A stretch of DNA of 64,000 nucleotides from the NCBI GenBank assembly GCA_001599295.1, contig BCGN01000007.1, forward strand, positions 446,433 to 510,432, given 5' to 3'. The translations under genes were made by a program, and so were the position numbers. Positions within the stretch are counted from its first letter, which is position 1; the number at the start of each line of letters is the position of its first letter. This DNA comes from Sporopachydermia quercuum. Taxonomy: Eukaryota. The notes under the pieces were generated by a model. It had not been told where the DNA came from and made no database searches. It saw only the letters and a list, made by a program, of their open reading frames with translations. Below are positions 12,822 through 63,951 of the stretch, in pieces.

Positions 12822-15377
12822 TTAATACACTTTCTGATTGCCCATTTTCTCAATTTTCTCAATTTTCTCATTTTCACTCTCCATTTCATCATCATCATCA
12901 CTACCATCATAATTCTCTCCTCCAATTGTATTACTAGTAACAGTCTTGACACCACTATCCCTATCACTATTATTATCATTATTATCACTATTGTTATCAC
13001 TATTATCGTTATTATTATCATGACCATTCTCACCTGTGATACGTATTGGACTTCCAGTAGCAATCCCTCCATCATCACTATCAGTATTACTTTCACTATC
13101 ATTGACATTTAACTTGTTACTCATAACTCCACTCCCATTACTGTTTGCTTTCTTGTCTTCCTCCTCATCATTATCCTTTTCATTATCTGAGTCAAATCCA
13201 AACTCCATTTGTACCTCATCATCGTCATCATCATTGAAACCGAAACCAAAACCAAGTTCCACATCGTTCTCCTTAGCTGTTTCCTCCTGTTCTTTCATTG
13301 TTTGTAAAACTTCTTCTTTCCTTTCCCTTANCCTGTACTTTGCTCCTAACGCCATTTTCTCATCAATAGCTTCAACACAGCGCATAGCAACGTTCAATTC
13401 ACTGAAAAACGTCTTACTGAGTTCCTTGTTGATACTTTTCGTTTTAGTATTGATAGCAGATGCTTTGGAGAGGATCTCTAGTTTAATATCGGTATATGGT
13501 GATAAGTATTTGCTGATGGTGTACAAAGAATCTCTGGCTCGGAGATCTCTTCTGAGATTTGCTCTGTCGATACGAGATTCCTTTGCATGAATCCGTCTTT
13601 TGGCAAATGCTACAAGATCAAACCGATTAGGGTTATTTGATTGGAATGCTGTTTGTTGGCTGGTTCCAGAGGACGTCGATGAATCGTTCAAAGCAGCTGC
13701 TAATGGTGTTATAGGTATAGTTGATATTCCAGGGGATGATGCTAACGAGGAAGGAGCTGATGGGTCTAAATCGCTTAATGGTGAGGACATTTCGGTGGTT
13801 TTCCCATCACCGTTGTCAGTAGTGTCAATATGTGTTGTTGATTTTGGTGTAGAAGGTTCAAGAGGCCGGGGTAGTTCATCTTCAGGTGCAGCGAACCCTG
13901 TAGAGCTTGGCCCCAAATGTCCTGTAGACGCATCATTTTTACCGATAGAAGCACCAGTGGTATTCTGTTCTGATGAAGAAGCACCTGCAAACTTGAGATC
14001 TACAAGCCTTTCCTGGTTTCCCGGTAGTTGGCCCAATGGGAGGGAGCCGGTTCCATTGAAGTCTACTCGGAAAACATCCCCTACAAGCTTCTCGATGCCA
14101 GCTTGATTCACCAGTTCGTTATTCTCAGTAACAGCTATCAATTTTCTCAAGGCGAATTCACCCAGACGTCCTTCTTGCACGAGGAGCTCTCTTAGTTTCC
14201 TTGGATCTGTCTCCCGCTGAGTAGCATTAGTAAGAGTAGACATGTAAGTATGGTCAGGGGGAAAACTTGGCATCCACGAGGGGACATAAGCTGGTCTTTC
14301 ATGGGAAGGAGGTATCAGTTCAGTGATTTGCTCCCAATCTTGCTTCACTTGAATATCATGGCCAAAATATGATTCTGGTTGTAAAGTACCTTTAGTTTTA
14401 AACAGTTGAAGTAGCTTTGATTCCGAAGCTACTAGAATGTTGCAGAATTCCGGAACCTTTTCTTTATATACATATAGTTTCGAATATTCAGCGTATAACG
14501 CATTAACGGATATATTTTCCATTTTGATAAGCCCTTGAAGATCTTCTAGACACGGCTGGTGTCTTCTTTGGATAGTGCTGAACTTCTTTAGACTGGAAAC
14601 CAGCTGATTGAAGTAATCTTCAGCAGAAAAAAACAACTGAACTACCAGTTCGTCTGATACGTCTATGGCAGCAGATTGTAGTAGTAGTTTGATGACAGAT
14701 TTGAAGGATGCTCTGAAAGCATCTATGCTCGGTTTGCTAATGGCGAACTCATGTTTCAGTTTTGCCTGTATTGATTGTTTCCGCTGACTCCTTCTTCTCT
14801 CTAAATCGTTTTCAAAAAAATTTGATGGCGAATTTGGCAATGATAATGGTTTGGTCGCGTCTTTCGCATTAGTTGTGCTAGGAGTTGCAGGAGTTGTAGC
14901 AGAAATGATTGATGATGTATTGACGACAATCGAAGTAGTAGCAGAGCTAATAGCAGGATCTGAATCAACTTGAATGTTGCTATTATCATCGTCACCATAC
15001 TCATCAGCATCAAGATCCTCTTCTTCATCATCAAATTCATAAACTACTCCATCTTCAGGTATATCTTCTATATCATCAATAATAGGTACACTGGTGCCAC
15101 GAACCACAGTCTCTAGTGAGCTCTCTTTTACAATGCCAGTATCAACGTCATCGCCTTCAAACTCTACAGGAAATTCACTATCAACATCCACATCAATATC
15201 CATGCCAGTATTAACATCGTCAATAGTCAGAAAGTCCTTTCCTGGCTTAATTGATAGATCGTTCAGATCTAATGGTTGTGCATTGATAGCATCATTAGAT
15301 ACATCTGTCGAAATATGCTTCAGGTTCGTCTCATCAATCAAGTTGACTGCTTCTATATCGTCTTTTTCGTCGCTCAT
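12822..15377 (-). CDS. TAF8: TFIID subunit Taf8-like
   Basis: Histone-fold/BTP-like segment (FNQLVSSLKKFSTIQRRHQPCLEDL) and TAF8_C motif 'YVPSWMPSFPPDHTYMST...RELLVQEGRLGEFALRKL'. First ATG at 15377 (MSDEK). The C-terminus may be frameshifted (see findings). Confidence 0.8.
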   Translation of the reverse strand: MSDEKDDIEAVNLIDETNLKHISTDVSNDAINAQPLDLNDLSIKPGKDFLTIDDVNTGMDIDVDVDSEFPVEFEGDDVDTGIVKESSLETVVRGTSVPIIDDIEDIPEDGVVYEFDDEEEDLDADEYGDDDNSNIQVDSDPAISSATTSIVVNTSSIISATTPATPSTTNAKDATKPLSLPNSPSNFFENDLERRRSQRKQSIQAKLKHEFAISKPSIDAFRASFKSVIKLLLQSAAIDVSDELVVQLFFSAEDYFNQLVSSLKKFSTIQRRHQPCLEDLQGLIKMENISVNALYAEYSKLYVYKEKVPEFCNILVASESKLLQLFKTKGTLQPESYFGHDIQVKQDWEQITELIPPSHERPAYVPSWMPSFPPDHTYMSTLTNATQRETDPRKLRELLVQEGRLGEFALRKLIAVTENNELVNQAGIEKLVGDVFRVDFNGTGSLPLGQLPGNQERLVDLKFAGASSSEQNTTGASIGKNDASTGHLGPSSTGFAAPEDELPRPLEPSTPKSTTHIDTTDNGDGKTTEMSSPLSDLDPSAPSSLASSPGISTIPITPLAAALNDSSTSSGTSQQTAFQSNNPNRFDLVAFAKRRIHAKESRIDRANLRRDLRARDSLYTISKYLSPYTDIKLEILSKASAINTKTKSINKELSKTFFSELNVAMRCVEAIDEKMALGAKYRXRERKEEVLQTMKEQEETAKENDVELGFGFGFNDDDDDEVQMEFGFDSDNEKDNDEEEDKKANSNGSGVMSNKLNVNDSESNTDSDDGGIATGSPIRITGENGHDNNNDNSDNNSDNNDNNSDRDSGVKTVTSNTIGGENYDGSDDDDEMESENEKIEKIEKMGNQKVY
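12890..13090 (-). repeat. Low-complexity D/N/S codon repeats in the TAF8 tail
   Basis: (GAT/AAT/AGT)n runs encoding DNNNDNSDNNSDNND. They explain the spurious overlapping Ile-rich ORFs. Confidence 0.75.
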
Positions 15378-16510
15378 TTTCTTATCATGGTTGAATTTCG
15401 CTTCGCCCTGGGTTGTCTGCCTACAAGCAGCGAATGCTAGATAGATGTAGATGGCGAAAGGAAGGAACAACCAGACTGCAAAGGGGTGCGCTGATTGTTA
15501 ATTGGTAAACAAATAAAAAAGAGGATTAGAAAGCAGTGGATTGTGTAAGTTATGATTGTGTTTTGTGAATTATTGCGTGAATTATTTTGTGGATAGCATT
15601 TTGGTTGATATTATGTGGTTTTGTGGTGATAAATATACAAACCATATATTATATGATTACGCAAACAAATATACATCTAGTAGAATTTCATACTATGGTC
15701 TAAAAGCACCTTTACATCTGTTATGGGACAAAGGGACAAAGTGAGACTTTATGTTGATAGTCCATTGAGAGAATAACAATGGAAGATGAATAGTAAGCAT
15801 TTGATATAAATGTAGAGAAATGCAAATTCTTTTCTACTGGGGAGAGAAGACTTCATGGTGAATTAGCTGCAACAAAAAAGTTGCAAAAAATATTCAGGTA
15901 AGATTGCTCCGGGAAAACTGGAAAGAATGAATGTTTATGAGAAGAGTTCTAAACATGCTGATCGGGATCAACGGAATTAAATGACATGAACATCAAATCA
16001 GCCGTCACAAGACATAAGTAGTATAATACCAGAGTACGTGTTTTCGAAATAAATCAGCTTCTAAGGCTAGCTGGCGTGGAATGGAATCGTTGATAATATA
16101 CGCATATTCAGCGCCTCTAGATCTTGTTGTCTATGACAGCAATGACCATCTGGCTTGATTCATTGCAGTCCATTTGGAGGTAATTGACTAAATATGATAA
16201 CAAAAGGATCCAGTTATTGCATGTAATCCAATGAGATATTTCCCAGCTAATGGTCATAATAAATCCATCCCCTATACTATTGTCCACCAATACCACTATT
16301 ACTTCCTACTCCTACCAATGCAAGCCANACAAAATTCAAACAGTACAATGATGTTTTATTCAGAATGTCGAAAGTTCTCCTAATCAATATATCTAATCTC
16401 CTAAAAAATAGCATAATACAGACTCTCATTCCTCTAAACTCCCTTCAAATACTTCACTTCACTTTATGTACTCTTTCCATTTGACTTTTACCCATCATAC
16501 AACAAACTAT

Positions 16511-17545
16511 TTAGACAAGATTATCAAGTAATGCTTCGATGGCCCCTTGAACATTACCACCGGATCGTCTTAGAGCTCGTACGTTCTTGTCAAAATCAAA
16601 GAAACCCAATTCATTCAATTGTCTTAACTGCGATTCATATCTTTCTTCTGGAGGACGAGTATCTTCTGGTGGAGGAGCTGCAGCAGGGGATGCTCCTGGT
16701 TGAGCAAGATTACCCAAGTTTAAGAAAGGATTAAATGGCATTTGGCCAAAAGGATTGGCCAAAGGAGTTGCATCTTGTGGAGTCGACCCTGCAGCACCAG
16801 TGCTAGCAGCAGTATTTCCTGTTGATGTATTAGGAGGGTTTGATCCAAGACTAGGGAATCCTGCGTTACCTAATTGTGATTGCATGTTCAACATATCTCT
16901 CATGAATTGTGGGTTTGCTAGCATGCTTCTAAATGATTCATTTTGTAGCATTGCTCTCATTTGATCTCTCATAGGTCCTGTTAGCCCTGGTTGCGAGTTG
17001 ATAATAAAATCGATCATTTGAGGATTAGAAAGCATAGCTTGCATTGACTCTTGCATCATTGGATTTGAAAGCATGTCTGAAAGTTGGGCAGGATCAGGTA
17101 ATTGCATACCTCCATCGGGACCAAATGCAGAGGTTGGGGGTAGATTGACACGACCTGCATATCTAGCAGACGTTAGATCAGCCAAAGGATTGAAAGTACC
17201 TGTTCCTGTAGCCATTGGTATTGAAGGTGTAGGGATACTAGTAGCAGAAGTATTAGTGTTATCTCCGGTAGTGGATGCTGCGGCTGTTGACAAGGACGAT
17301 GAGCCAGTTGAAACATTAGGTTTAGCTGCGGATTTTACTAAATGAATGGTCATTCCATCTTTGATTTTATATGATTCTAATGTCTCTTCATCCTTTAACA
17401 CTCTACCAGAGAAGATCAATCGTTGTCTTTCTACTGCGATTTCACTTGTGTCAGCTATTTTACCCTTTAACTCAGCAACTGTATTAGTTGGCTCCACATC
17501 AATGGTGAACTTTTTGTCAGCTGATGATTTGATTGACACTTGCAT
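16511..17545 (-). CDS. DSK2: Ubiquilin-type UBL-STI1-UBA proteasome shuttle
   Basis: N-terminal UBL (QRLIFSGRVLKD...TIHLVKS), M/N/P-rich STI1 repeats, and C-terminal UBA 'PPEERYESQLRQLNELGFFDFDKNVRALRRSGGNVQGAIEALL'. Confidence 0.95.
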   Translation of the reverse strand: MQVSIKSSADKKFTIDVEPTNTVAELKGKIADTSEIAVERQRLIFSGRVLKDEETLESYKIKDGMTIHLVKSAAKPNVSTGSSSLSTAAASTTGDNTNTSATSIPTPSIPMATGTGTFNPLADLTSARYAGRVNLPPTSAFGPDGGMQLPDPAQLSDMLSNPMMQESMQAMLSNPQMIDFIINSQPGLTGPMRDQMRAMLQNESFRSMLANPQFMRDMLNMQSQLGNAGFPSLGSNPPNTSTGNTAASTGAAGSTPQDATPLANPFGQMPFNPFLNLGNLAQPGASPAAAPPPEDTRPPEERYESQLRQLNELGFFDFDKNVRALRRSGGNVQGAIEALLDNLV

Positions 17546-17923
17546 TGTGTTTTTAATTATCCGGATCGTTTGTTGAGCTGCGTTAATTGATCAGCAATAA
17601 ACACTTGATGGTCCAGTTTGCAACCAGAATTACACTATGGAGTTCTTGATCTTAACTTGTGACCAAAGGATATTTCCGTACAGTTTCATACAAAACCCAC
17701 TTACAGTTTGTTTGAATAACTGATTGGGTAGAATATGCTTTTTCATAGCTTTGAATAAATCCTTATCAGTTGGTTGTTCAGTGAATGCAACGTTGTCAAT
17801 TTTAATGCTTTTGAGATCTGGAAGGCGTTTATGAGAAACGTCCCAATACTCGTAGAAGGTACTAGAAAAGGAGAATAAAAGATTACGTGAACAAGTGATT
17901 AAAACTGGGAATTACATAATCAA

Positions 17924-17932
17924 GTCACGTGA
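17924..17932. promoter_or_regulatory. GTCACGTGA (Cbf1 consensus) upstream of DSK2
   Basis: Exact consensus about 380 bp upstream of the DSK2 ATG. Confidence 0.4.
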
Positions 17933-20429
17933 ATATCAGCAAGTGCTTGTTAGCTGTGTTCTGTGTGGTACTAATCCCAATATCGGTATGGTCCGATAGT
18001 TGGCATAAGATATGAATTACAACAGAGGTAATGCTGAAATAGGCCGACATTTCGTAAATTCGGTAAATCACACCTTAAAGGTATAATTATTAAGCTAGAA
18101 ACAAAATATTCATGCAACAACAAACAACTTACTCAAATATCATAGAGAACATGATTGTTGTTGAGACTCTTTTCAGCACGCGAAAGTCGAGTCATTATTC
18201 CGTAATTGTTTTGATCATGCTATATAATGCACAATTATGCTTGTCGCGATATTTATCTATTTATCTTTTTGACAAGTAAAAGCTTATTAAACTTTCATAT
18301 AATATTTTGAATGTCATCAACTTTTCTATAACAAGCAAACCCTATTTTTTCAGGGTCGTACTAGACTTCGAAGTAAAGTTTTGTCCTGAAACAGCAGATC
18401 ACTTGAATCTTGGATCTTGGTTTATGGGGTGCAAGACCAATTATATCCTGATTAGGTCTTGAATAACTAATGGATCGTTTTGATAGTATTATTCATAATG
18501 ATGCTAAGGAAATGCAATGATATTATGAGCCATTTTAAACTGGGTATTAAATTCTGTATCAACGGCAGTAGTTTTTCGAAAACGTCAGCAACACCTTTGG
18601 CTATTCAACGAAGACCAAAGTATCCTGACAGATTCAGGACCGGAGACTTCGCTGGCATCAGAACTTCTAATGAAACACTTCCTTTTCTGATAAATTGGAC
18701 AAACTAATGATCAATTTGGTAAATTAGCTCAGTTGTTCCTTCAACTTTTGCCTGCAAAATTTATGCAGAAACCAGTTCATGCATTCTGATTTCAAAGCAT
18801 ATTTGCTTGGCTTACATGTTGGTCATAAGTTACCCCAAGTTCAATTATCTTGTTTGCAATCGTTGCGAAGTGAAGATATTCACGGTTCAAAGNTTGCAAG
18901 GACATGAGAAAGGCTAAAAGCCTCAAATTGANCATTTAACAAAAATAGGAGTGTTCTATTATGGAAACAATTCACCAAGCTGACATGATATAACTAAGCA
19001 AGCATGANTGTACGAACAAAAGCTCCGGTTTAAAATGTCACACGATACTAGTAGGCGAAAGACCATCATAATTGTAGAATAGCCAAAGCCAGACGTTTTG
19101 TTTTATCTCGTGATCTGGAGAGTACTGCTACTTCTGTTCTAGACAAATTAATAACACCGGTTTTCGCTATAATTTATCCAGTTTGATCTTCCCCTGCCAA
19201 AAGCTATAGGCATTAGTTTCCATAGTGTTTCCCCAGCGGATTCGGCTGGAATTTCTACCCCATTCTCCAATATATCACCAAGAAAACAACAATGGCTGAA
19301 TCTCTTTACACTTATTATTGAGCTCACACTACACTTTTAAACTCATATCCAGCAAATATCGTATATATATGTTGACTGATATATGAACCCTCATAACTCA
19401 TTTACTTTTTCTTTATCTATTCTTCTCCTTCCATTTCCTGTACCAACATGCATCTCTCATGCACTCTATCGTATACCATGTCAAATTGTCACAAACTCTA
19501 ATTGTCAGTTAGTCCCGCATCCATGTAAAATAAAACCTTGCCAAAGCTTTGTTTCCTCCTCTTCTTCTCTCGCGCCCTTTTACTTTTACTTGTATACTTT
19601 GTTTGTTACAGTTAGAATGAATCAAATATGTAATCTCATCGACAGTTGAAACGATATACAATATACATTATCACTATATCTACGACACTGCAAGCAATAT
19701 ATCTCAAGTTTCACGCAATTGTTTCCTGTTCCATCAGATAGCCTGTGTGATTGATTGAGAGTCCTTTTTCTGTTGTATTTCCTATACAATTAACCCATTG
19801 ACACAAACTGGTGCTTTGTTTATTGGTATCTCATCATTATCCTCATCGTATATCAACCATAAACATATTTTGGTATCAAAGCAAAGTGGTTTTCTCTATT
19901 TACTTGCTGAAATACTGAGTTACCTCCTGACTTGAATTGGATCGAATTAGAACGATAGATTGATAGATAAATAGAAAGCTGTGATCATCGCAGAAGGAAA
20001 TAATTAATTAGCTAGGCTAGTTAATTGCATAATATACTGCATAGTTAATTGCATTATTTGTTTGTCAGTTTGTCAGTTGTTTTACCAAGATTTGATTTCT
20101 ATGGTTTCAAAGGGTGAAAATACAACCAGAAGAAAACAAGAAAAGAACAAAAGAGACTGAATTGTTTGCTGATTGGATTCTGTTCATTCCGTTGACCTTA
20201 GTCAGCATACTCTGGGTTTATGGCTAGTGCTACAGGTATTGATACTATTAACACTATTTTTGCTAACTGATAATTCAAACTATCGGCAATAACTGGCATC
20301 TGCTATAACTATCACCAACACTTCCTGACATTGGATATCACCAGACAACCAGCCCCATCCAGACAGACTACCACTATCACTATCACCATCACCATCTGCA
20401 ACCAGCATCTTTCCCCACAAATAAGAAAA

Positions 20430-21184
20430 ATGGCTTCAGAAGACATTTCAACACCTCAAGCAACTTTGGAGATGGAGGCAAGAGCCCTTCAGAGCTTACG
20501 ACGGAAAACTGACGCTATTCTCGCTACGAATCCCCTGTTTTTCGACCATCGCAAGAAAAGAAAACTTACACAGCTGTCGGCAAGAGAAAAGAAATTAAAG
20601 CTTCTTTTGCAGAGCAAAAAAGATACCAGCAGTCACAACCTTTCTAACGATCATCAACAGAACGATGGTACTGACAGTTTACTGAAAAATGACAGTGATA
20701 AACTAGTCGCTGGTGGTAGCGGTTCGGTGCCATTACCAGGATCAGCGTCTGATGCGTCTGATGCTACTGATCCAAGTTTAGGCGGGAAAGCAAAGGTGCC
20801 CCCGTCGTTGGTGAACTCTACCACCTTGAAATCCTTGGGTTCTGTTTCTCTTACGCCAGAACAACAGGCAAACTTGCTAAGTAGTGCGAAAAACACCCGG
20901 AAGGACTACCAATCCTGTGTCAGGTTCTGGAACAAATGGTGCGACGATTGGTACAGCCACTTGCCAGAGCCCTTCCGGTATCATGTCACAAGCATTAAAA
21001 CCCTGGCATTTCTTACTTATTTGGTGAACAGAGGGAACGACAAAATACAGCCGCCTATTGATTTGGCAGAAATCGAGATGGCAAACGCTGCCAAAAAGGA
21101 TAAACCCGGCTTAGATACCGATGACAAACTCACTGATCTGGGGGATGAACCCGATGTGTCGTTAATAGATGCTACTATCAAACA

Positions 21185-21215
<31 letters not shown>

Positions 21216-22049
21216 CAATCACAACAGCAACAACAGCAAGAGCAACTACTGCAACAATTACAGCACCAGAACCAAAATCAGTTACAACAACATCAACTAC
21301 AACAGCAACAACCACCCCAGAAATTCAAACCATACGCTTACTCCACCATAGACGGCTACCTTTCTGCACTGGTAGATCTATACTATAACCAAATAGACAC
21401 TGCTATTGAGAACATGATGAACACTTGGGATCCTCCCCGGGACGAGAAAGTGATTTATTTCATGGATATTCTCAAACATGAACACGGTCCTGTTCGTAGT
21501 AAGAAAAGGAAACAGAAAGACGAGTCGAAGCTAGAAGATAAGCTGGGAGATAGCGGCGATCTTGCCTCTGGGCAGGATTTGCTCGGAATTGATGCTCATG
21601 AGAGTAAAGGAAAAGGCATGCGTATGAAATCCCGTCGTTCGCGCAGCGTGAAGTCGAAACTGGACTCCCAGCACGATGTTTTGGCATCTCCTTCCCAAGC
21701 TCAAGCAGTTGCCCAGGCGCAGGCGCAGGCCCAAGCCCAAGCGCAGGCGCAAGCTCAGGCCGTTGCCCAGGCACAAGCTCAAGCCCAAGCCCAATCGCAA
21801 GCATTCAATATCAATACCAATCCCAATATGCCAATGATGCCTTTTACCTCAAAAGAAGAATACGAAAAGTATATGATGCATTACCCTATGTATATGCCGA
21901 TGATGAACATTTCTCCTCAACTGCAAATGCCAATGATGTCAGTTCAGCAAATGGGGAGTAATGTAAATGTGTCTAATTCACCATCAGGACAATCGTCATC
22001 TGCTTCTAATCAGACTTCACATAGACGTCAACAGTCTGATTTTTTCTAG
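20430..22049 (+). CDS. Crypton/Ndc10/Gcr-like N-terminal (integrase SAM-like) domain protein with polyQ and QA repeats; putative transcription regulator
   Basis: ATG at 20430 in A-rich context. Pattern 'AKNTRKDYQSCVRFWNKWC..YHVTSIKTLAFLTYLVNR..YSTIDGYLSALVDLYYNQ..PPR' resembles the N-terminal domain of fungal Crypton recombinases. Basic NLS-like clusters (RKKRK, SKKRK). Confidence 0.7.
21183..21320 (+). repeat. CAG/CAA polyglutamine tract
   Basis: Encodes QQQQQQQQQPQQSQQQQQQEQLLQQ... Confidence 0.9.
21696..21803 (+). repeat. (Gln-Ala)n dipeptide repeat
   Basis: CAG GCG/CAA GCC units encoding QAQAVAQAQAQAQ... Confidence 0.9.
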
Positions 22050-24686
22050 TATGCGTATACAATAAAATCGAATGGAATGGAGCAAATTTACTGGAATCAA
22101 ATGAATTGAACGAATGAGCGGATAGAATAGGATGGAAAATAATTTCACTATGATGTTTGATAGTTATTTGATGCTTATATGATGCTTATCAAGTAGTTAT
22201 TACTACGGTTATTACTGTTCATATGGTAGTTATTCCTACTATTATTGCCATAGTATAGCTACTGGTTTACTGCGGTTATTAGTACGGTTGTTACTGCAGT
22301 CATTCATATATGTCGTATGATCCATAGTATATATATTATCCATTAATTTTCTATTATTCATCTTGTTACTTCTTTATCATCCATCTACTCTCCTTACCAC
22401 TCCTTTACGACTCTTCATGTTTATATCACTTATTTATTACTATATAACAAGTACATTAAATGAATATCAAAGTATTTTGGAATTAGGAATATTAGCTTTT
22501 AGTTACTGGTTAAACATTTAAGTACTTCTTTTACACTTGATCTAATGATTTGACACTCAGATTAATGAAGACATCTCCATACTTACTGTTTTTCTCCTAA
22601 GGGTAGTAAGGAGTTTGTAGGAGTAGGAGGCTGTGCTCAGTTCGATTCAACTTGTCAAGTTAATTTAAGGACGGATTATGGCTACGAACATATGGTAGAT
22701 TCCTGATTATAGCTATTGAACTTGATATAATGTGAAGCATCAATTGTATCAACAATAGTTTGATTTGATTCGGTATTTTACTTACTAGATGCTAGAGGAT
22801 GTTATTTATTAGATGCTATCGATCAAGTACTATTTAATGAAAATATTTCATGTAGTAGTTAGTATTTATCACAGCTATCATATTTATTATCATTGTCTCA
22901 CATTATTATTCCTGTTTTTCAGGATTCATGTTGTTGCTTTAGCTGTTGTGTTCACTTTTTCTATGATGCTGAAAGTCAATTTAAATGTTAATAAAAATAG
23001 TCAGAAAATGTGGATATTTTGCCTGGTGAACAGCCATTAAATCAAGATTATTTCTTGGTAGTAATAATACTTAAATATTTGAGAGAGCAAGAAAGAAAAC
23101 TGAGTAGAAAACAAGAGTTAAAAGATAAAAGATAAAAGACAAAAGAAACGCAAAGACTTTCTATATTTGACAGATAATCAGCTTAATATCAACGGATTGC
23201 CAGGAGGTTTCAGCTGGTTTCAACAACTTATCAACTAAGGATTGGAATATAATTCACTGATGATTTCGAGGTTTCACTCACTCACTCTTCCATTGCTTGT
23301 TCTTTCTGTTTCAAAAGATTTACTGGCTTTGAGCCTTTTCATTTCTTTGCTTTCTTTGACTGAAACCCGCAAATGATTTTCTTTGAGCTTGGAAAAGCAA
23401 TGAGGATATTTATAAGGATACTTATAGGGAGATTTCAAAAGATTTTGTAATTATATGAACACTTATAGAGATATTTCTAGAGTATAATAACAAACAACGA
23501 TCTACATAAATCGTACACATCAAAAACACTAATCGAAATTACGAACTTCCTTCTCAGTTCTCATACAGGACTAAAAGCCAGTGACTAATAACTAATTGAA
23601 GTAGAGTTTTTGTTAGTTTTCAGAAGGATTTTGAATAGGAAAGTAGTAGTAGATGAGCTTGTTCCCTCTGAGCTTTCAGATGATAGTCATCCAAGAAAGT
23701 ACTGAAATGTGCCTCAGGAAAAGAATCTGGTCTAAAATCCAAATTCCTCGTCTATTATCTATTTCTATTCAATCACACTAATTCTGGCTTGTCGTCTCTG
23801 GTAAAACAACAGCTATCACCACTATGTCTATTATATTCCTCAGTTTGAACTTTATAGCATTTATAGCATTCTCACGTACAGATTCCTCCCATATACAGTA
23901 CAAGAGAGCAGAACTTTTGCTGATATTTCATTGTTTTCAGTACATCTTTTTCAAAATTCACTAAATATTTCCGCTCTTCTTTCGGCAGACCCGACAGACT
24001 TAAACAAAACAGTTTTACACCTTGCTCTTCTTCTTCTGAGCTATTCAACATGAAAGATTTCTATTGCCTTTGATTTTTTCATCACCATAGCATATAAATG
24101 CCCAAAACAACAATATATACATATATGCAGGCGAAACATCATGAGGTGTCTTTCAGTGAAATGTAAATTCATTTAATACCAGAGGAACCAGAGGAACCAG
24201 AGGTTCTAGTTTCTTCTGAGTTCCAAGTTCCGTATTCATATTCAGTCCCGTCCTCATTCCATGATGTGAGATATCCTGCTCTGCCAGAAACCTTCCGTTA
24301 AGTACTATATAAACAGCATCTGCTTCCGAACCCTGAGTATCTCTTTCTCATTCACAATCAAATATCCTGATATTGAAGGATGAAGCATAATGTTCAAAAG
24401 GTATTTTGCTCTCAAGAGTATCACTGACAGACCATTCCGGTCCAGTCATGAGATTAATACGAATAATACTGGAATAACAGCACTGAAANGTGGAAAGAGG
24501 CCATTTCCTATATCAAATGCTTCATATAATGATTCAGGTTCCTTCATAGGTTTCTTCGAAGGTTCCTTTCTATTCAAATCTAGTAGTTATTCATCTGCTG
24601 GCCCTTTCCTAGGCTCTCCTAGTTCTCTTCTACTCCCAGATTTACCTATTAACGCACCACCATGCTTACCATAACTTATCTACTTC

Positions 24687-27600
24687 TCAAATAAACCCTC
24701 TAGTAAGCAAAACATGCACTTTGCTTCCCTGGCCAAAACTGATTGTATATTTAGGTATAGGAACAGGTAATTCCACACCAGAACCAGCATTACCAAACGC
24801 TACAATATCATCTCGGGTTTCTCCCCAAATGTTCTTACTTTTAACGGTAGAAAGCTTAGGCGTTCCTAATAANTACTCCTGTTCCGTATGAGCGAACACT
24901 TCTCCTGACTCTGACTGATTTTCATGCACAACGTTCAATGGCACAGTCAGACTGATAGTAGGACCTGCAGTGAACATGCAGTCTATCTGCAGGTCGTAGA
25001 ACCTTGATATTAAACATGTATGAAAGTCAGGAAGAAACGTCATGCCACTTGGTTGGCTTAGTGGGATTTGGATTTCCTGTTTGAAGCCGATTGGGTCACC
25101 TGACACGGCGTTGTAGATACAGTTCGGAGGCACGTGACAGAGATCCGAGATTTCTGATGATGTCATCAACGACCAGTTGTTGCCAGCAGAGGCTCCGACG
25201 CGGATGTTTCGAGTGACATTTATACTTTCCCGAGCCACGGCTAGATCCCGTTTCAACTCCGATAGTCGAGAAGTCGGGATAAACGGAATGGAAAGTACGT
25301 CGTAAGTAGTGTACGCTTTAATTTTTATGGTTAAATTTGTCAGATTCGGTATTGTGAAGTAGTTGGCAAGTGGACAGTTTGAGTTTATGTCGGGATTGGC
25401 AGAAGCGGTAGGATCAAATCCGCCAGGCTGAGGGAAAAACACCATTTTTATAGGTAGCATTTCGGATATGCCGGATGCTTCAGCTTCAGCTTCGGAATAA
25501 GTCGGAGGTTCGACAGCGGCAGCAAAGCTACTCAGAGGCTCCGAACGATGTTCCGAAGTAGATTCCGCGTTTGTGGGTCCCGGAAACAAGGTTTCTGACT
25601 GAGGTTCCCCTGGAAACTNATCTTCTATAGTAGATTCCGATATTTTATCGGATATCCCTTTATCTATTCCAGAATTAGAACCGGAACTGGAGCCGGAATT
25701 AGAGCCAAAGGAAAACTTCCGGAAAATTTTCGATAACGATGATTTCCGTTTCTTGGCATCCGAGTTTCGCCGGGGACTGTTGTTCCCCGAATTTTGGGGC
25801 TCAGCGTCATTACTCGTTGAGCTATGATCTCCGTCTTTATTAGGACCGGGGAGTTTATGTGAGATAACGTTTGGAGGGGCATTTTTTCTAGGATTCCGAT
25901 AAACAAACGGGTTCGGAACCGGCACGTCCACCCGCATTACTCCGAGGTCTTGTTGGTTTCCAAAATCCAGATAAAAATTTCCGACTTTCTGAATATTCGC
26001 CGTTTTGAGTACTTCTGCTAAGTTTTCCTGTGGTATTGGTTCATCTTCTCCGGTTTCCGGACTCTCTATTTGGTTATCGTTCTGACTGTTAGTTCCGTTA
26101 CTACTGCTTAAAGATACAAATGAATCTTTTCCGCTATCTTTGCCGCTATCCTTTCCGCTATCTTTTCCACTATGACTTCCTTTCTCACTACCAAAAACGG
26201 ATAACAGCGTTTTCTTCTTCTTTTTGATTATCCGATACTTATGAAACGTAATTCTCTGAGTAGTCGGATTCACATAGTTTCCCATACTCCGTTCCGTCTT
26301 AGCGACAAGCTTCCGAATAGCCGATTGAGTTCCCATACTGCCCATACCGGATAATCGGATTGTATTAGCTGGAACCGGATAGGACGGAACGATTCGGATC
26401 TCTCTTCGGGACTCTTGAATCATCCGAAAATTATGCTCCGGTTTTATGTTTATTTGCACATCCGACGGGTGAACATCCTGAGATGTCTGTCCCATATCCT
26501 GTATGTCTAATTCTTCCTCAGTCCGGGCTTCTTCATAAGGCGACGATCCATTCATTGATCGTTCAAAGTATTCGGTGATTAATGTTTGAGTGGACACGTA
26601 ACGGAACGAGGATGCTACTGATGATGATGTTCTTCTTATCGTTTCACGGGCTCTGCCAGCGGCAGAACTAGATGCGTCAGCATAAGTAGAAGTAGCAGTA
26701 TTGGGTAGCGGTTGAGGCTCGTATCCAGGGACACTTTGATCCGAATCGGAGCTAATAGCTGTTCNTTGCTCGGTCAATCTCGGGCCATCTTCTGAGTCCA
26801 GGTAGGGATCGATCTCGGGATCAGCTTCGACGTCGGAGTCTCGGTCGGAATCTGANTCCCCAGGTAGTGTAACTATCATAGGTTCTATTCCGACATTATC
26901 TCCTATTTGGTCGTAATTGTTACGAATATCGTTTCCGTTATTTCTTCTTTCAGTGGTAGTTGGCATTTGATTTCTTGAATCCAAAGTTCGTAATCGTTGC
27001 AAATCCGTCTCGGATATACCTATATTGCTACCCGATAATTCTGTTTGAAGTACTGGCGCGGAACCTCTTCTCCGTTGAGGATCTTTCGGAACGTCTTTAT
27101 TCCGAGCCAATGCGACTTTAATACAATACGATATACATGTCATTCCAGGCGCTCTGTCATTGATGCTAGTCACAAGATACTGGGGAATAAGCTTCTCGGG
27201 TGTAATCTCCTCACGGGTTTCACTGGATTTACCGGTTTCTTCCGAACTCTCGCTTATAATCGGATCAGATTCTGCTAAATGCTTCCGAATGGTTTCTAAC
27301 GTATGCTTCGGAATCGGATCTGCATGTCCTGATTCAATCATGTCTTCCGTTACAGAAGTGCCAATGGCATTGCTAATGTTATAACTAGGTAAACCACCAG
27401 TCCGAGGTATTTCGCCATTGCCAATAAAACTGGCTTCTGTAGGCATAACAGCAATAGAAGAACCAACCGCCTGATTCAGCAGTAAGGATTCAGAGTTTCC
27501 GAATGTCGGCGGTAGTCTTCTATGAGGCAATAAATCGTACTTGCAAGTTGTTTCTAGTATGGTGAACGGAATAACAAACATAAAGTCAAATACATAGACA

Positions 27601-27929
27601 GCCCCTGCTTTAGCTATACGATCTTTTGGCAATTTATGCCTTGGAACTATATCCAATAGCTTTAAGAATGTATGAGTAATTGATATTCTGGATGAAGCAG
27701 TATCACGGAAAGTAGAACTTGAACCTTCTAGAGTTATCAACACGTCGTCAATAATAGTATCTCTATTGGATGTGACGGTCACTTTGCCTTTAACGACATC
27801 TCCAAGGTTGAATTCTGGTTTATCATTATCTATTATAATTGAGATTTGGGCACCATGCCAGTAGAATTTTCCTGGATTGACCAGCGAAGTCAATCGAGGT
27901 CTTCTATGGAATTGAGGAAGACTGTACAT
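24687..27929 (-). CDS. Bul1-like arrestin-fold Rsp5 ubiquitin-ligase adaptor
   Basis: Arrestin-N start (GDVVKGKV...ITLEG), Bul1-type 'FDFMFVIPFTILETTC...H..LPPTFG' and 'APGMTCISYCI', C-terminal 'FLPDFHTCLISRFYDL', and PY motifs (PPTY, LPSY). Confidence 0.75.
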   Translation of the reverse strand: MYSLPQFHRRPRLTSLVNPGKFYWHGAQISIIIDNDKPEFNLGDVVKGKVTVTSNRDTIIDDVLITLEGSSSTFRDTASSRISITHTFLKLLDIVPRHKLPKDRIAKAGAVYVFDFMFVIPFTILETTCKYDLLPHRRLPPTFGNSESLLLNQAVGSSIAVMPTEASFIGNGEIPRTGGLPSYNISNAIGTSVTEDMIESGHADPIPKHTLETIRKHLAESDPIISESSEETGKSSETREEITPEKLIPQYLVTSINDRAPGMTCISYCIKVALARNKDVPKDPQRRRGSAPVLQTELSGSNIGISETDLQRLRTLDSRNQMPTTTERRNNGNDIRNNYDQIGDNVGIEPMIVTLPGXSDSDRDSDVEADPEIDPYLDSEDGPRLTEQXTAISSDSDQSVPGYEPQPLPNTATSTYADASSSAAGRARETIRRTSSSVASSFRYVSTQTLITEYFERSMNGSSPYEEARTEEELDIQDMGQTSQDVHPSDVQINIKPEHNFRMIQESRREIRIVPSYPVPANTIRLSGMGSMGTQSAIRKLVAKTERSMGNYVNPTTQRITFHKYRIIKKKKKTLLSVFGSEKGSHSGKDSGKDSGKDSGKDSFVSLSSSNGTNSQNDNQIESPETGEDEPIPQENLAEVLKTANIQKVGNFYLDFGNQQDLGVMRVDVPVPNPFVYRNPRKNAPPNVISHKLPGPNKDGDHSSTSNDAEPQNSGNNSPRRNSDAKKRKSSLSKIFRKFSFGSNSGSSSGSNSGIDKGISDKISESTIEDXFPGEPQSETLFPGPTNAESTSEHRSEPLSSFAAAVEPPTYSEAEAEASGISEMLPIKMVFFPQPGGFDPTASANPDINSNCPLANYFTIPNLTNLTIKIKAYTTYDVLSIPFIPTSRLSELKRDLAVARESINVTRNIRVGASAGNNWSLMTSSEISDLCHVPPNCIYNAVSGDPIGFKQEIQIPLSQPSGMTFLPDFHTCLISRFYDLQIDCMFTAGPTISLTVPLNVVHENQSESGEVFAHTEQEXLLGTPKLSTVKSKNIWGETRDDIVAFGNAGSGVELPVPIPKYTISFGQGSKVHVLLTRGFI
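26123..26170 (-). repeat. 12-bp tandem repeat encoding (SGKD)x3-4
   Basis: Plus strand reads tctttt ccgcta tctttg ccgcta tccttt ccgcta tctttt cc. Confidence 0.8.
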
Positions 27930-46494: not shown

Positions 46495-47753
46495 ATGTCG
46501 ACTACTGTAGAAAAAGTATGTTCAACCATAAGAAGAGTTCATCAGTGTCATTTGAGTATCCAGTTTGCTGTAAGTCACAGTTATCATGACTAACCAACTT
46601 TATAGATTAAAGAAATAGAGCTGGAGATGTCTCGTACCCAGAAAAACAAAGCCACAAGTTTCCATCTGGGTCAACTGAAGGCTAAGCTTGGTAAGTATAA
46701 TACAGAGGTCGCAGCAGTATACTTTATGTCCCACCACTAACAATTACAGCAAAATTAAGAAGAGAACTACTGGCACCTTCTGGTGGCTCTGGCGGTGGTT
46801 CAGGTGGTGCAGGCTTTGATGTAGCTAGAACAGGTGTGGCTTCCGTAGGATTTATTGGTTTCCCTTCCGTAGGTAAATCAACTTTACTATCAAAGTTAAC
46901 TGGCACCCATTCTGAAGCTGCTGCCTACGAATTCACAACTTTGACCACCGTTCCTGGTACTATTAAATTTAAAGGTGCCAAGATCCAAATGCTTGATTTG
47001 CCTGGTATTATCGAAGGTGCCAAAGATGGTAAAGGTAGAGGTAAACAAGTTATTGCTGTAGCTAGAACTTGCAACCTGATTTTCATTGTGTTGGATGTCA
47101 ACAAACCTTTGATTCATAAGCAGATCATTGAGAAGGAATTGGAAGGTTTCGGCATTCGCATCAACAAAGTTCCTCCTAATATAGTTTTCCAAAAGAAAGA
47201 ACGAGGTGGTATCAATATCACCAATACTGTGCCATTAACACATTTAGATCCTGGTGAGATCAAAGCTGTTATGGGTGAATATAGAATCAACTCTGCTAAT
47301 ATTGCTTTCAGATGTGATGCCACTGTTGATGACTTGATTGATGTTTTAGAAGCTCAAAACAGAAAATATATTCCGGTGATTTATGTCCTTAATAAGATCG
47401 ATTCTATCTCTATAGAAGAATTAGATCTACTATACAGAATTCCCAACGCTGTACCCATTTCCTCGGAGCATGGTTGGAATCTTGATGAGTTATTGGAAGA
47501 AATGTGGAAGAAATTGAACTTGGTAAGAGTGTACACCAAACCAAAGGGTCGTATGCCTGACTATACGGATCCTGTGGTGTTGAGGAAGAGTGCATCAACT
47601 GTTGAGGACTTTTGTAATCAAATTCATAAGTCGCTGGTGGAGGATTTCAAAACTGCCGTGGTTTATGGTACGAGTGTCAAGCATCAACCTCAATACGTTG
47701 GTTTATCTCATACGTTGGAGGACGAAGACGTTGTTACTATTTTGAAGAAGTAA
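46495..47753 (+). CDS. RBG1: DRG-family ribosome-interacting GTPase; join(46495..46515,46606..46690,46750..47753)
   Basis: Spliced N-terminus [43 protein letters not shown], plus [21 protein letters not shown] and a TGS domain. Confidence 0.96.
46516..46605 (+). other. RBG1 intron 1 (90 nt)
   Basis: GTATGT...GACTAAC(46588)...TAG. Confidence 0.9.
46691..46749 (+). other. RBG1 intron 2 (59 nt)
   Basis: GTAAGT...CACTAAC(46735)...CAG. Removal restores the conserved KLAKLRRE. Confidence 0.9.
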
Positions 47754-61882: not shown

Positions 61883-63951
61883 CTAGTTCAAAGATTTTTG
61901 ATCATCAAACCTCAAATCCCAACCAATCTTTGGTCCTAACCTAGGTAGAACTTCGGCCACACTTTGAACATCTTTATCACCTCTACCAGAAACACAGATC
62001 ACCAAGTTTTGGTCTTTGCTCATAGTCTTAGCTAATTGAACAGCTCCATAAACAGCATGTGATGATTCTAAAGCAGGAATAATACCCTCAAATTGAGATA
62101 ACCATTTGAAGCCTAATAAAGCATCGGCATCAGTAGCAGCTACAAATTGAGCTCTGCCACTGGCTTTCCAGGCTGCGAGTTCAGGTCCAACACCAGGATA
62201 ATCTAAACCAGCAGATACTGAATGAGTGTCTTGAATTTGTCCATCTTTATTCTGTAGAACGTATGTCTTCACGCCATGGAATACACCTTTAACACCAGCT
62301 GTCAACGTAGCTGAGTGTCTATCAGTATCGAGACCATCGCCACCAGCTTCAACACCAAGTAACTTGACACTCGAATCTTTCTCAAATGGTGAAAACATAC
62401 CTGTGGAGTTACTACCACCACCAACACATGCAACCACAGCATCAGGAAGTTTGCCATCGTTCAAAGCTTTGAATTGTTCCTTTGTCTCATTACCGATAAC
62501 TGATTGGAAGGTTCTAACTAGAGTAGGGTAAGGATGAGGTCCAATAGCAGAACCTACAACGTAATGTGTAGTAGCTAGGTTAGAAACCCAGAATCTGAAA
62601 GCTTCTGAAGTTGCATCACGTAAAGTTTGAGTACCGGCTGTGATAGGAATAACCTTAGCGCCTAGTAATTTCATTCTAAATACGTTCAAAGCTTGTCTTC
62701 TTACGTCTTCAGCTCCCATAAACACTGTACATTCCAAACCAAATTTAGCTGCTGCAGTTGCAGTTGCAACACCATGTTGACCTGCCCCTGTTTCAGCAAT
62801 AACCTTGTTTTTACCTAGTCTCTTAGCAATCAATACTTGAGCCATAGCGTTATTGATCTTGTGAGAACCAGTATGGTTTAAATCTTCACGTTTTAACCAG
62901 ATCTTAGCCCCACCAGAAAATTCAGTTAATCTCGGAGCTTCATGTAAAGATGAGGGTCTTGACATATATGGATAGTATGATTTTAATTCAGCCCAGAACT
63001 CCGGATCAGCAGTTGCTGATTCAAAAGCTCTTTCGAGTTCTAATAAACACGTATGCATAGCTTCGGGAACGTATTGACCACCAAATTCACCAAATCTGGG
63101 GTTATATTTGGAACTCACATCAGCATCTGGCTTGTTTTCCAGTTCTTCAGTTGCTGCTGCACTGCCAGCACTATTACTGCTATCAATAATCTTTGGTGAC
63201 TCACCACCTTTAAGAATATCTTCAACAAAAGCTTTAGCAGCTTCTTGCCTGCTTCCTTCTGGTGCTTGTTCAATGGTGGTAACAAGCTTAGAGCCAATGA
63301 CTACACCATCAGCAGCAGCAGCAAATTTAAGGAAATGCTCTCTAGTACTAACCCCAAAACCAACAGCAAGAGGAATCTCCTTGGTGAACCTNCTGACATG
63401 TCGAACAAGCTCAGGTACACTGTCACTGACAGTTTGTAAAGCACCAGTAGTAGCCATACGGGATACAACGTAGATGAATGAATCAGCGATTTCTGCAAGT
63501 ACTTTCAATCTATCATCTTCAGTGGATGGAGCCACTAAAGGAATGTATGATATACCAACAGCGGCACATTGACCTCTAAATTTGATAGCTTCCTCAGGTG
63601 GCAAATCAACAATGATAAACCCATTTGCGCCAGCATCAAATGAATCTTGAATCATTTTTTCTTCTCCGTAATTAAGAATAGGATTATAATACCCCATAAG
63701 AACAATAGGTACGGTTACACCAGAAGCACGAGCCTTTCTAACTAATTCCAAACATAGTGGTACATTTACACCGTTTGCCAAAGCAACGTTATTTGAATGC
63801 TGAATAGTGGGTCCGTCAGCAATTGGATCTGAGAATGGAATACCTAATTCAATAACATCAACACCACCGGCTTGTAATCCTTGAAGAATCGGCACTGTCT
63901 CTACAATAGTAGGATGACCAGCGGTAACAAAGGTGACTAAGGCCGTGCGAC
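61883..63951 (-). CDS. TRP5: Tryptophan synthase (alpha-beta fusion); 3' exon only, first exon lies beyond the window
   Basis: [42 protein letters not shown] and ACVGGGSN motifs. The exon begins after TCCTAAC(63974-63968)...CAG(63952). Confidence 0.97.

Follow-up and report, generated by a model that had tools for sequence, protein, structure and literature searches.

What is the intact open reading frame (ORF) at 20430..22049 on the + strand of the 64,000-nucleotide stretch of Sporopachydermia quercuum DNA analysed here (the window, taken at its full length), and does any part of it descend from a mobile element? The initial annotation had proposed a domesticated N-terminal domain of a Crypton, a tyrosine-recombinase transposon, fused to polyglutamine (polyQ), QA and Met-rich tracts. 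Our answer is that the locus is not a mobile element, and that the ORF is probably a functional, single-copy host gene for a mostly disordered, presumably nuclear protein. The best explanation, in which our confidence is about even, is a host regulator carrying a four-helix domain of the recombinase N-terminal type (SAM-like/core-binding), a domain that would be homologous to those of recombinases and would have been drawn from a mobile element.

The ORF comprises 539 codons and a stop, without internal stops or N, and its ATG at position 20430 is the first to follow the stop upstream. Residues 1-137 (20430..20840) form a basic, Ser-rich N-terminal region (pI 9.4) without family match, which carries a cluster resembling a nuclear localisation signal (NLS), KKRKL, at residues 42-46 (20553-20567). 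It is followed by the first half of a split domain (residues 138-212, 20841..21065), an insert that begins as an acidic stretch and continues as polyQ (residues 213-295, 21066..21314), and the second half of the domain (residues 296-356, 21315..21497). The remainder consists of a basic linker (residues 357-420, 21498..21689; pI 9.8) with an RSRRSRS cluster and the cluster KKRKQK at residues 358-363 (21501-21518), a (QA)n tract of 37 residues (421-457, 21690..21800), and a tail rich in Met, Pro and Ser (residues 458-539, 21801..22046; 13 M, 8 P and 13 S of 82). All parts lie on the + strand. Counts of composition place the NLS-like clusters, the (QA)n tract and the Met/Pro-rich tail where the initial annotation had put them, and both of its motif blocks are present within a few bases of the ranges that it gave. 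Block 1 (20889-21032) holds KNTRKDY at 20889-20909 (residue 154), FWNKWC at 20925-20942 and LVNR at 21021-21032, and block 2 (21339-21449) holds YSTIDGY at 21339-21359 (residue 304) and PPRDEK at 21432-21449. The acidic/polyQ interruption described between the blocks is likewise real, with 31 Q among the 83 residues and 12 D+E versus 5 K+R.

Mixed codons were found in the insert polyQ (CAG/CAA) as well as in the QA tract, and these tracts are therefore read as likely retained at the protein level and not as fresh slippage. CTG codons occur at L192 and L314, both within the predicted hydrophobic core described below, and in the RPA190 gene of the window they sit at what we take to be conserved leucine sites; the ORF was therefore read by the standard code.

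We used two structure prediction methods on the split domain. AlphaFold2, run without an alignment, gave models with low predicted local distance difference test (pLDDT) values, the mean being 44.9 for residues 130-360 and 47.4 for residues 151-353. In these models helices are predicted at about 143-152, 157-175 (NTRKDY...FWNKWC) and 180-202 (VTSIKTLAFLTYLVNRG) in the first half, and at about 304-332 (YSTIDGYLSALVDLYYNQ...) and 339-352 in the second half. For packing, the two halves (residues 140-212 and 296-356) were given to ESMFold2 as separate chains, together with three controls and without alignments. The two halves packed with a score of 0.64, as compared to 0.01 for the best of the three controls. 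Of 78 solved complexes 51 reached this mark, as did 2 of 108 mismatched pairs; for eukaryotes it was attained by 39 of the 65 solved and 2 of the 126 unrelated pairs. At least 85% of the contacts agree between runs, and the pLDDT of the partner is 75 or more.

The predicted interface covers residues 159-167 and 184-199 of the first half and residues 302-321 and 333-348 of the second. Hydrophobic contacts in the ESMFold2 packing are made by Y160, V164, W167, V186, L192, F194, L195 and L198 on one side, and by I307, L311, L314, L317, Y318, V341, F344 and L348 on the other. Helix 180-202 is packed antiparallel to helix 304-321, as is expected of neighbouring helices joined by a loop. This packing suggests that the two blocks are the halves of one small helical unit, in which the acidic/polyQ loop of 83 residues would open the domain between the second and third core helices.

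Two families of recombinase N-terminal DNA-binding domains, ALOG and Phage_int_SAM_1, serve for comparison (Iyer & Aravind 2012, available portion). According to the same portion of that paper, ALOG proteins are nuclear, have a zinc ribbon inserted between helix 2 and helix 3 and a conserved +xR motif in helix 3, and trace back to retroposons of the DIRS1 type, in plants as well as other lineages. In the ALOG numbering the insert of the ORF protein separates helices 2 and 3, which is the site of the ALOG zinc ribbon.

The family of the domain was approached with ESM-Atlas, a language-model feature search in which nine out of ten same-family matches share at least 170 of 256 features. With residues 138-350 as query, 13 of the 30 matches fell in the set of QRICH1 (PF25561), with a best score of 0.92, 16 belonged to clusters whose members share no family, and one to an ALOG cluster (0.88). 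Because this query contained polyQ and the family ranking highest takes its name from a glutamine-rich protein, a second query without polyQ (residues 140-212) was made. Here 26 of 30 matches belonged to clusters of no shared family; sets bearing a family, among those shown, were limited to PF02899 Phage_int_SAM_1 (0.90, 10% of members) and PF25561 QRICH1 (0.90, 60%). Every family-bearing set shown in the two queries is thus QRICH1, ALOG or Phage_int_SAM_1. The PF25561 profile, which we take to describe the N-terminal helical domain of QRICH1, has 115 positions, the size of a domain of the recombinase N-terminal type. These neighbours may be taken as a lead toward the recombinase N-terminal families, not as proof.

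Additionally, a profile was built from the XerD N-terminal domains of 77 out of 81 loci. On the first half it scores 5.2 bits, a value reached by 1 of 500 shuffles, and its 'NT..aY..dL....wL' helix is aligned on AKNTRKDYQSCVRFWNKWC. The ORF protein thereby resembles the N-terminal domain of XerC/XerD (Phage_int_SAM_1, PF02899) in having 'NT..Y......W' in helix 1 at the matching position, and the PF02899-bearing cluster among the ESM-Atlas matches points the same way; it differs in that helix 1 alone aligns and in that a catalytic domain is absent. Of the core-binding-type domain claimed by the initial annotation, the part that stands is the one carried by the ESM-Atlas families and the ESMFold2 packing, while no profile match reaches significance. 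On balance we consider homology of the domain to the recombinase N-terminal domain somewhat probable.

The alternative that survives best is a chance resemblance, which we hold to be the less likely but a substantial one. It states that the ORF encodes a lineage-specific, mostly disordered nuclear protein, whose small helical bundle has no link to the N-terminal domains of tyrosine recombinases. The following results weigh in its favour and against a recombinase-type domain. The ESM-Atlas matches share 155 and 147 of 256 features, below the same-family level of 170, and their scores of 0.90-0.93 are in a range that is also reached by chance: a score of 0.9 is attained by 4 to 10 out of every 100 shuffled proteins, in a calibration made on whole proteins and not on parts. 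The second block alone matches nothing: the XerD profile gives it -0.5 bits, equalled by 43 of 500 shuffles, and BLASTP of the second half against Escherichia coli XerD returns nothing at E<=100. The best BLASTP segment against E. coli XerD lies in the catalytic part (E 0.022), helix 1 having E 1.8, neither being significant, and hhalign of the XerD N-terminal profile against the domain covers 21 columns (helix 1 only) with P 0.038 and a probability of 1.35%. The XerD set has an invariant D32 and a nearly invariant R74 (>=90%), for which we read no counterpart in the ORF protein.

Furthermore, no related family, PF25561 and ALOG included, came up in Pfam when the whole domain and each half were searched by hmmscan to an E of 10; it should be noted that HMMER filters hide matches above about E 0.1-0.25. 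PHROGs and NCBIfam hold nothing relevant for the domain, and a sequence search of PDB gave nothing but low-complexity or chance matches. At their mean pLDDT the AlphaFold2 models are too poor for a fold comparison, and the packing result identifies one unit and not the type of its fold; likeness to solved helical folds may contribute to it. The third core helix (residues 303-332) has 4 D/E and no K/R, so that the basic DNA-contact residues of the family are missing; R74 of XerD lies in the helix that corresponds to it, as does the +xR motif of ALOG. On the other side, chance would have to account for family-bearing ESM-Atlas sets that consist of recombinase N-terminal families or QRICH1 only, in agreement with a prior proposal made from motifs alone, for an XerD profile that hits the right helix at the right place, and for two halves that pack as one unit around an insert at the ALOG insert site.

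One entry among the PDB sequences, prostaglandin E synthase 2 with E 0.0023 over helices 1-2, was set aside as a chance match.

Searches for homologs of the ORF protein were carried out on protein collections, metagenomes and viral contigs, and none was found, which also speaks against the recombinase-type regulator. Word-index protein searches with the whole protein, residues 138-215 and residues 296-356 gave no match, the whole-protein search being swamped by polyQ words. A phmmer search of residues 130-235 against 1.84 billion representatives gave four matches at E<=0.001. The metagenome scans with each half gave 533 and 167 pattern matches, of which none was confirmed. This null result is weak, because none of five tested proteins of the window, SAM synthetase included, was found in the collection of 15 billion proteins; the proteome of the source genome is therefore absent there, and perhaps those of close relatives too. 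To pass in a library this large, some 36 bits are required of a half-domain of about 55 residues. Among the sequencing runs listed as matching the locus there is no RNA run; three are DNA runs, which may be the source of the window.

The four phmmer matches were rejected as relatives, all being tandem-repeat proteins aligned in 4-5 stretches. Such repeat proteins (P0002, P0003 and P0005) have 374-466 amino acids (aa) in 4-5 tandem units with the pattern W-H/S-x-Y/F-C-D...G-G-x-R-D-P...F-L, and as far as can be told they make up an unannotated repeat family, apparently unrelated to the ORF. A viral-contig match of 19 residues (L082) was rejected as chance, since it lies outside any ORF on that strand and opposite a gene of 479 aa.

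A distinctly improbable explanation sees in the ORF not a separate domestication but the rapidly evolving ortholog, or a truncated paralog, of a known yeast gene; candidates are a coactivator of the Gcr2 type and an Ndc10/Gcr1-family gene copied with its front domain only. In Ndc10 the front domain shows a comparable order of motifs and an acidic insert, and the DNA-binding region of Ndc10 is reportedly related to tyrosine recombinases. A coactivator would be in line with the length of 539 aa and with the low-complexity architecture, and the weakness of the homolog searches leaves room for such a gene. Opposed to it are the phmmer search, which returned repeat proteins only, the empty word-index searches, and a PDB sequence search without a match in a collection that presumably includes Ndc10 entries. 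In addition, the literature searched does not tie Gcr2 to Crypton or 'tyrosine recombinase', which leaves the naming of Gcr2 as Crypton-related in the initial annotation without backing there. In favour of this explanation, the available text of Kojima & Jurka 2011 (PMC3212892) reports derived genes only, and no Crypton insertions, for Saccharomycotina, so that an existing host gene would be the nearest source of the domain.

The same text bears on the Crypton origin proposed by the initial annotation, which our results do not establish; the source could just as well be an element of the DIRS type or a host gene copied in truncated form. In the portion available, the CryptonF-derived yeast genes are Gcr1, Msn1, Hot1, Cbf2/Ndc10 and Cdg1, and GCR1_C is the only domain common to CryptonF elements and all the genes derived from them, Cbf2 and Gcr1 sharing a recombinase-like central domain as well (PMC3212892). 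With these genes the ORF protein has in common the host lineage, budding yeasts, and the proposed source element, but it possesses neither GCR1_C nor the recombinase-like centre (Phage_integrase, DUF3504, NDC10_II). Since GCR1_C is lacking, the protein falls outside the CryptonF-derived set as that portion of the paper delimits it, and this too counts against the recombinase-derived regulator. Among animal genes, QRICH1 is described there as a Crypton-derived, Q-rich regulator (Kojima & Jurka 2011, PMC3212892), and its clusters are the nearest named ones in both ESM-Atlas queries (0.92 and 0.90), but hmmscan does not match the ORF protein to PF25561. In animals the genes derived from Cryptons (QRICH1, ZMYM2-4 and KCTD1) keep the recombinase-derived domain DUF3504, in so far as the available text covers them, whereas the ORF protein is without it. 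In the titles and abstract openings of the literature searched, no N-terminal-only Crypton-derived gene in Saccharomycotina was found.

Whether the locus could itself be mobile was evaluated by copy number and by remnants of the expected domains. The segment 19900-21180, which precedes the polyQ and QA repeats and was picked for that reason, has, in two whole assemblies of which 17.1 and 16.5 Mb were read, exactly one contig match apiece at >=80% likeness, with no differences; these assemblies may be the window's own source and thus inform on copy number, not on independent occurrence. Many dispersed near-identical copies, which the initial annotation had named as a sign of a non-autonomous element, were accordingly looked for and not seen in these assemblies, nor is there a second copy of the locus in the window. 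The initial annotation saw no R-H-R-Y catalytic domain and no GCR1_C, and this holds at the level of Pfam profiles: the ORF protein has no tyrosine-recombinase, DUF3504, NDC10_II or GCR1_C (PF12550) match at E<=1, and the 62 stop-to-stop frames of at least 40 aa in the flanks hold no recombinase, DUF3504, NDC10_II or GCR1_C remnant at E<=0.1. Two features of an active Crypton, a catalytic R-H-R-Y recombinase in the ORF or its flanks and several genomic copies, are therefore missing from what was searched. A decaying or non-autonomous Crypton-type transposon copy is very improbable indeed: it could draw on a domain type that, if real, belongs to the recombinases of mobile elements and on long flanking spacers (2884 and 2637 bp, the downstream one holding what looks like a relic of an NST1-like gene), but has against it the single contig per assembly, the intact frame of 539 codons and the lack of any such remnant in the protein or the flanking frames.

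Returning to the host regulator with a recombinase N-terminal-type domain, judged from composition it would most likely act in transcription, as a regulator or an adaptor; the coactivator or dominant-negative function put forward in the initial annotation would likewise be read from composition. The specific part of the protein would be the helical module, docking either on a partner or on DNA. The basic clusters and the basic flanks on either side of the domain may provide nuclear import and unspecific contact with nucleic acids. The Q-rich, (QA)n and Met-rich tracts, which are of a sort also present in yeast activators and co-regulators, would recruit the transcription machinery. As the third helix is without basic residues, docking on a partner is favoured over sequence-specific DNA binding by the module, and as the recombinase catalytic domain is absent, the protein cannot cut or join DNA. 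Recombinase-type domains multimerise, as argued in the available text of Kojima & Jurka (PMC3212892).

By analogy, the nearest parallel would be the plant ALOG proteins (LSH1/G1 family, PF04852), in which a recombinase N-terminal domain stands between low-complexity segments. Common to both are the four-helix recombinase N-terminal domain, putative in the case of the ORF protein, the absence of a catalytic domain, the low-complexity flanks and an insert at the same inter-helix site, together with the ALOG cluster among the ESM-Atlas matches (0.88). In contrast to ALOG, the ORF protein has no Pfam ALOG match, its insert is acidic/polyQ and not a zinc ribbon, the +xR motif of helix 3 is missing, and the source of ALOG is not yeast. 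A more specific version, which we regard as speculative and rather unlikely, is a yeast counterpart of ALOG in which the Crypton-type front domain alone was kept, opened by the polyQ loop, without its DNA-contact arginines and joined to the Q-rich, QA and Met-rich tracts. It would serve as an adaptor that, by domain contacts like those of recombinases, docks on the remaining Crypton-derived factors of yeast, the Gcr1/Ndc10 family, and supplies them with activation tracts. If this adaptor existed, budding yeasts would have a fifth domestication, minimal in its domains and the first to lack GCR1_C.

Should the domain assignment be true, the ORF would encode a budding-yeast regulator derived from a recombinase that has the N-terminal helical domain only. 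In the parts of the literature available to us such an architecture has so far been described for plant ALOG, and GCR1_C is what every published case in yeast is built on. It would be a further case of DNA-binding or multimerising domains of mobile elements turned into host regulators, and it would offer a small module on which binding to DNA versus binding to a Gcr1/Ndc10-type protein is open to testing. If, on the other hand, the likeness is due to chance, the ORF merely adds to the lineage-specific nuclear proteins rich in Q and has little interest beyond that.

The genomic setting is that of core genes, as judged from family matches across the window. These neighbours include a SAM synthetase gene, a TAF8-like gene, a DSK2-like gene (16511-17545, - strand) that is divergent from the ORF, a BUL1-like gene (24687-27929, - strand) on its downstream side, and DGA1-like, NBP35-like, Nup96-type, RPA190 and IFM1-like genes. 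The large subunit of RNA polymerase I encoded in the window scores 2316 bits against the Saccharomyces cerevisiae chain and 1735 bits against that of Schizosaccharomyces pombe; the window is ordinary budding-yeast DNA of chromosomal origin. The long divergent upstream region of about 2.9 kb that had been described measures 2884 bp between the DSK2-like gene and the ORF (17546..20429), and has neither a family match in stop-to-stop frames of at least 40 aa nor an Rfam match. The spacer downstream of the ORF is 2637 bp long. No Rfam families or tRNAs were found in the window.

The downstream spacer contains a stop-to-stop frame of 62 aa at 23875-24060 (- strand) that matches Pfam NST1 (PF13945) with E 5.5e-8 and 33.6 bits (cut-off 25) over profile positions 99-145 of 193. 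The match is not extended by reading TGA as X, and a long surrounding frame is absent; judged by its sequence, the frame appears to be what is left, in short form, of an NST1-like gene. The TAF8-like, DSK2-like and BUL1-like genes are clustered at 12822-27929, the latter two on the same strand and separated by the ORF and the NST1-like relic. We take BUL1 and DSK2 to be adjacent and divergent in S. cerevisiae, and on that assumed order the arrangement at 12822-27929 suggests a local rearrangement.

There are 47 isolated N scattered over the window; the BUL1-like ORF contains 4 of these, whereas the ORF studied here is free of them. They look like masked single sites and not gaps. A DRG/Rbg-type ORF at 46989-47753 (+ strand) comprises the MMR_HSR1_Xtn and TGS parts only, without the GTPase part, and the tryptophan-synthase ORF at 61883-63697 (- strand) starts at position 93 of the Trp_syntA profile. 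The 5' parts of these two ORFs must lie in another exon or frame, owing to introns or frame breaks.

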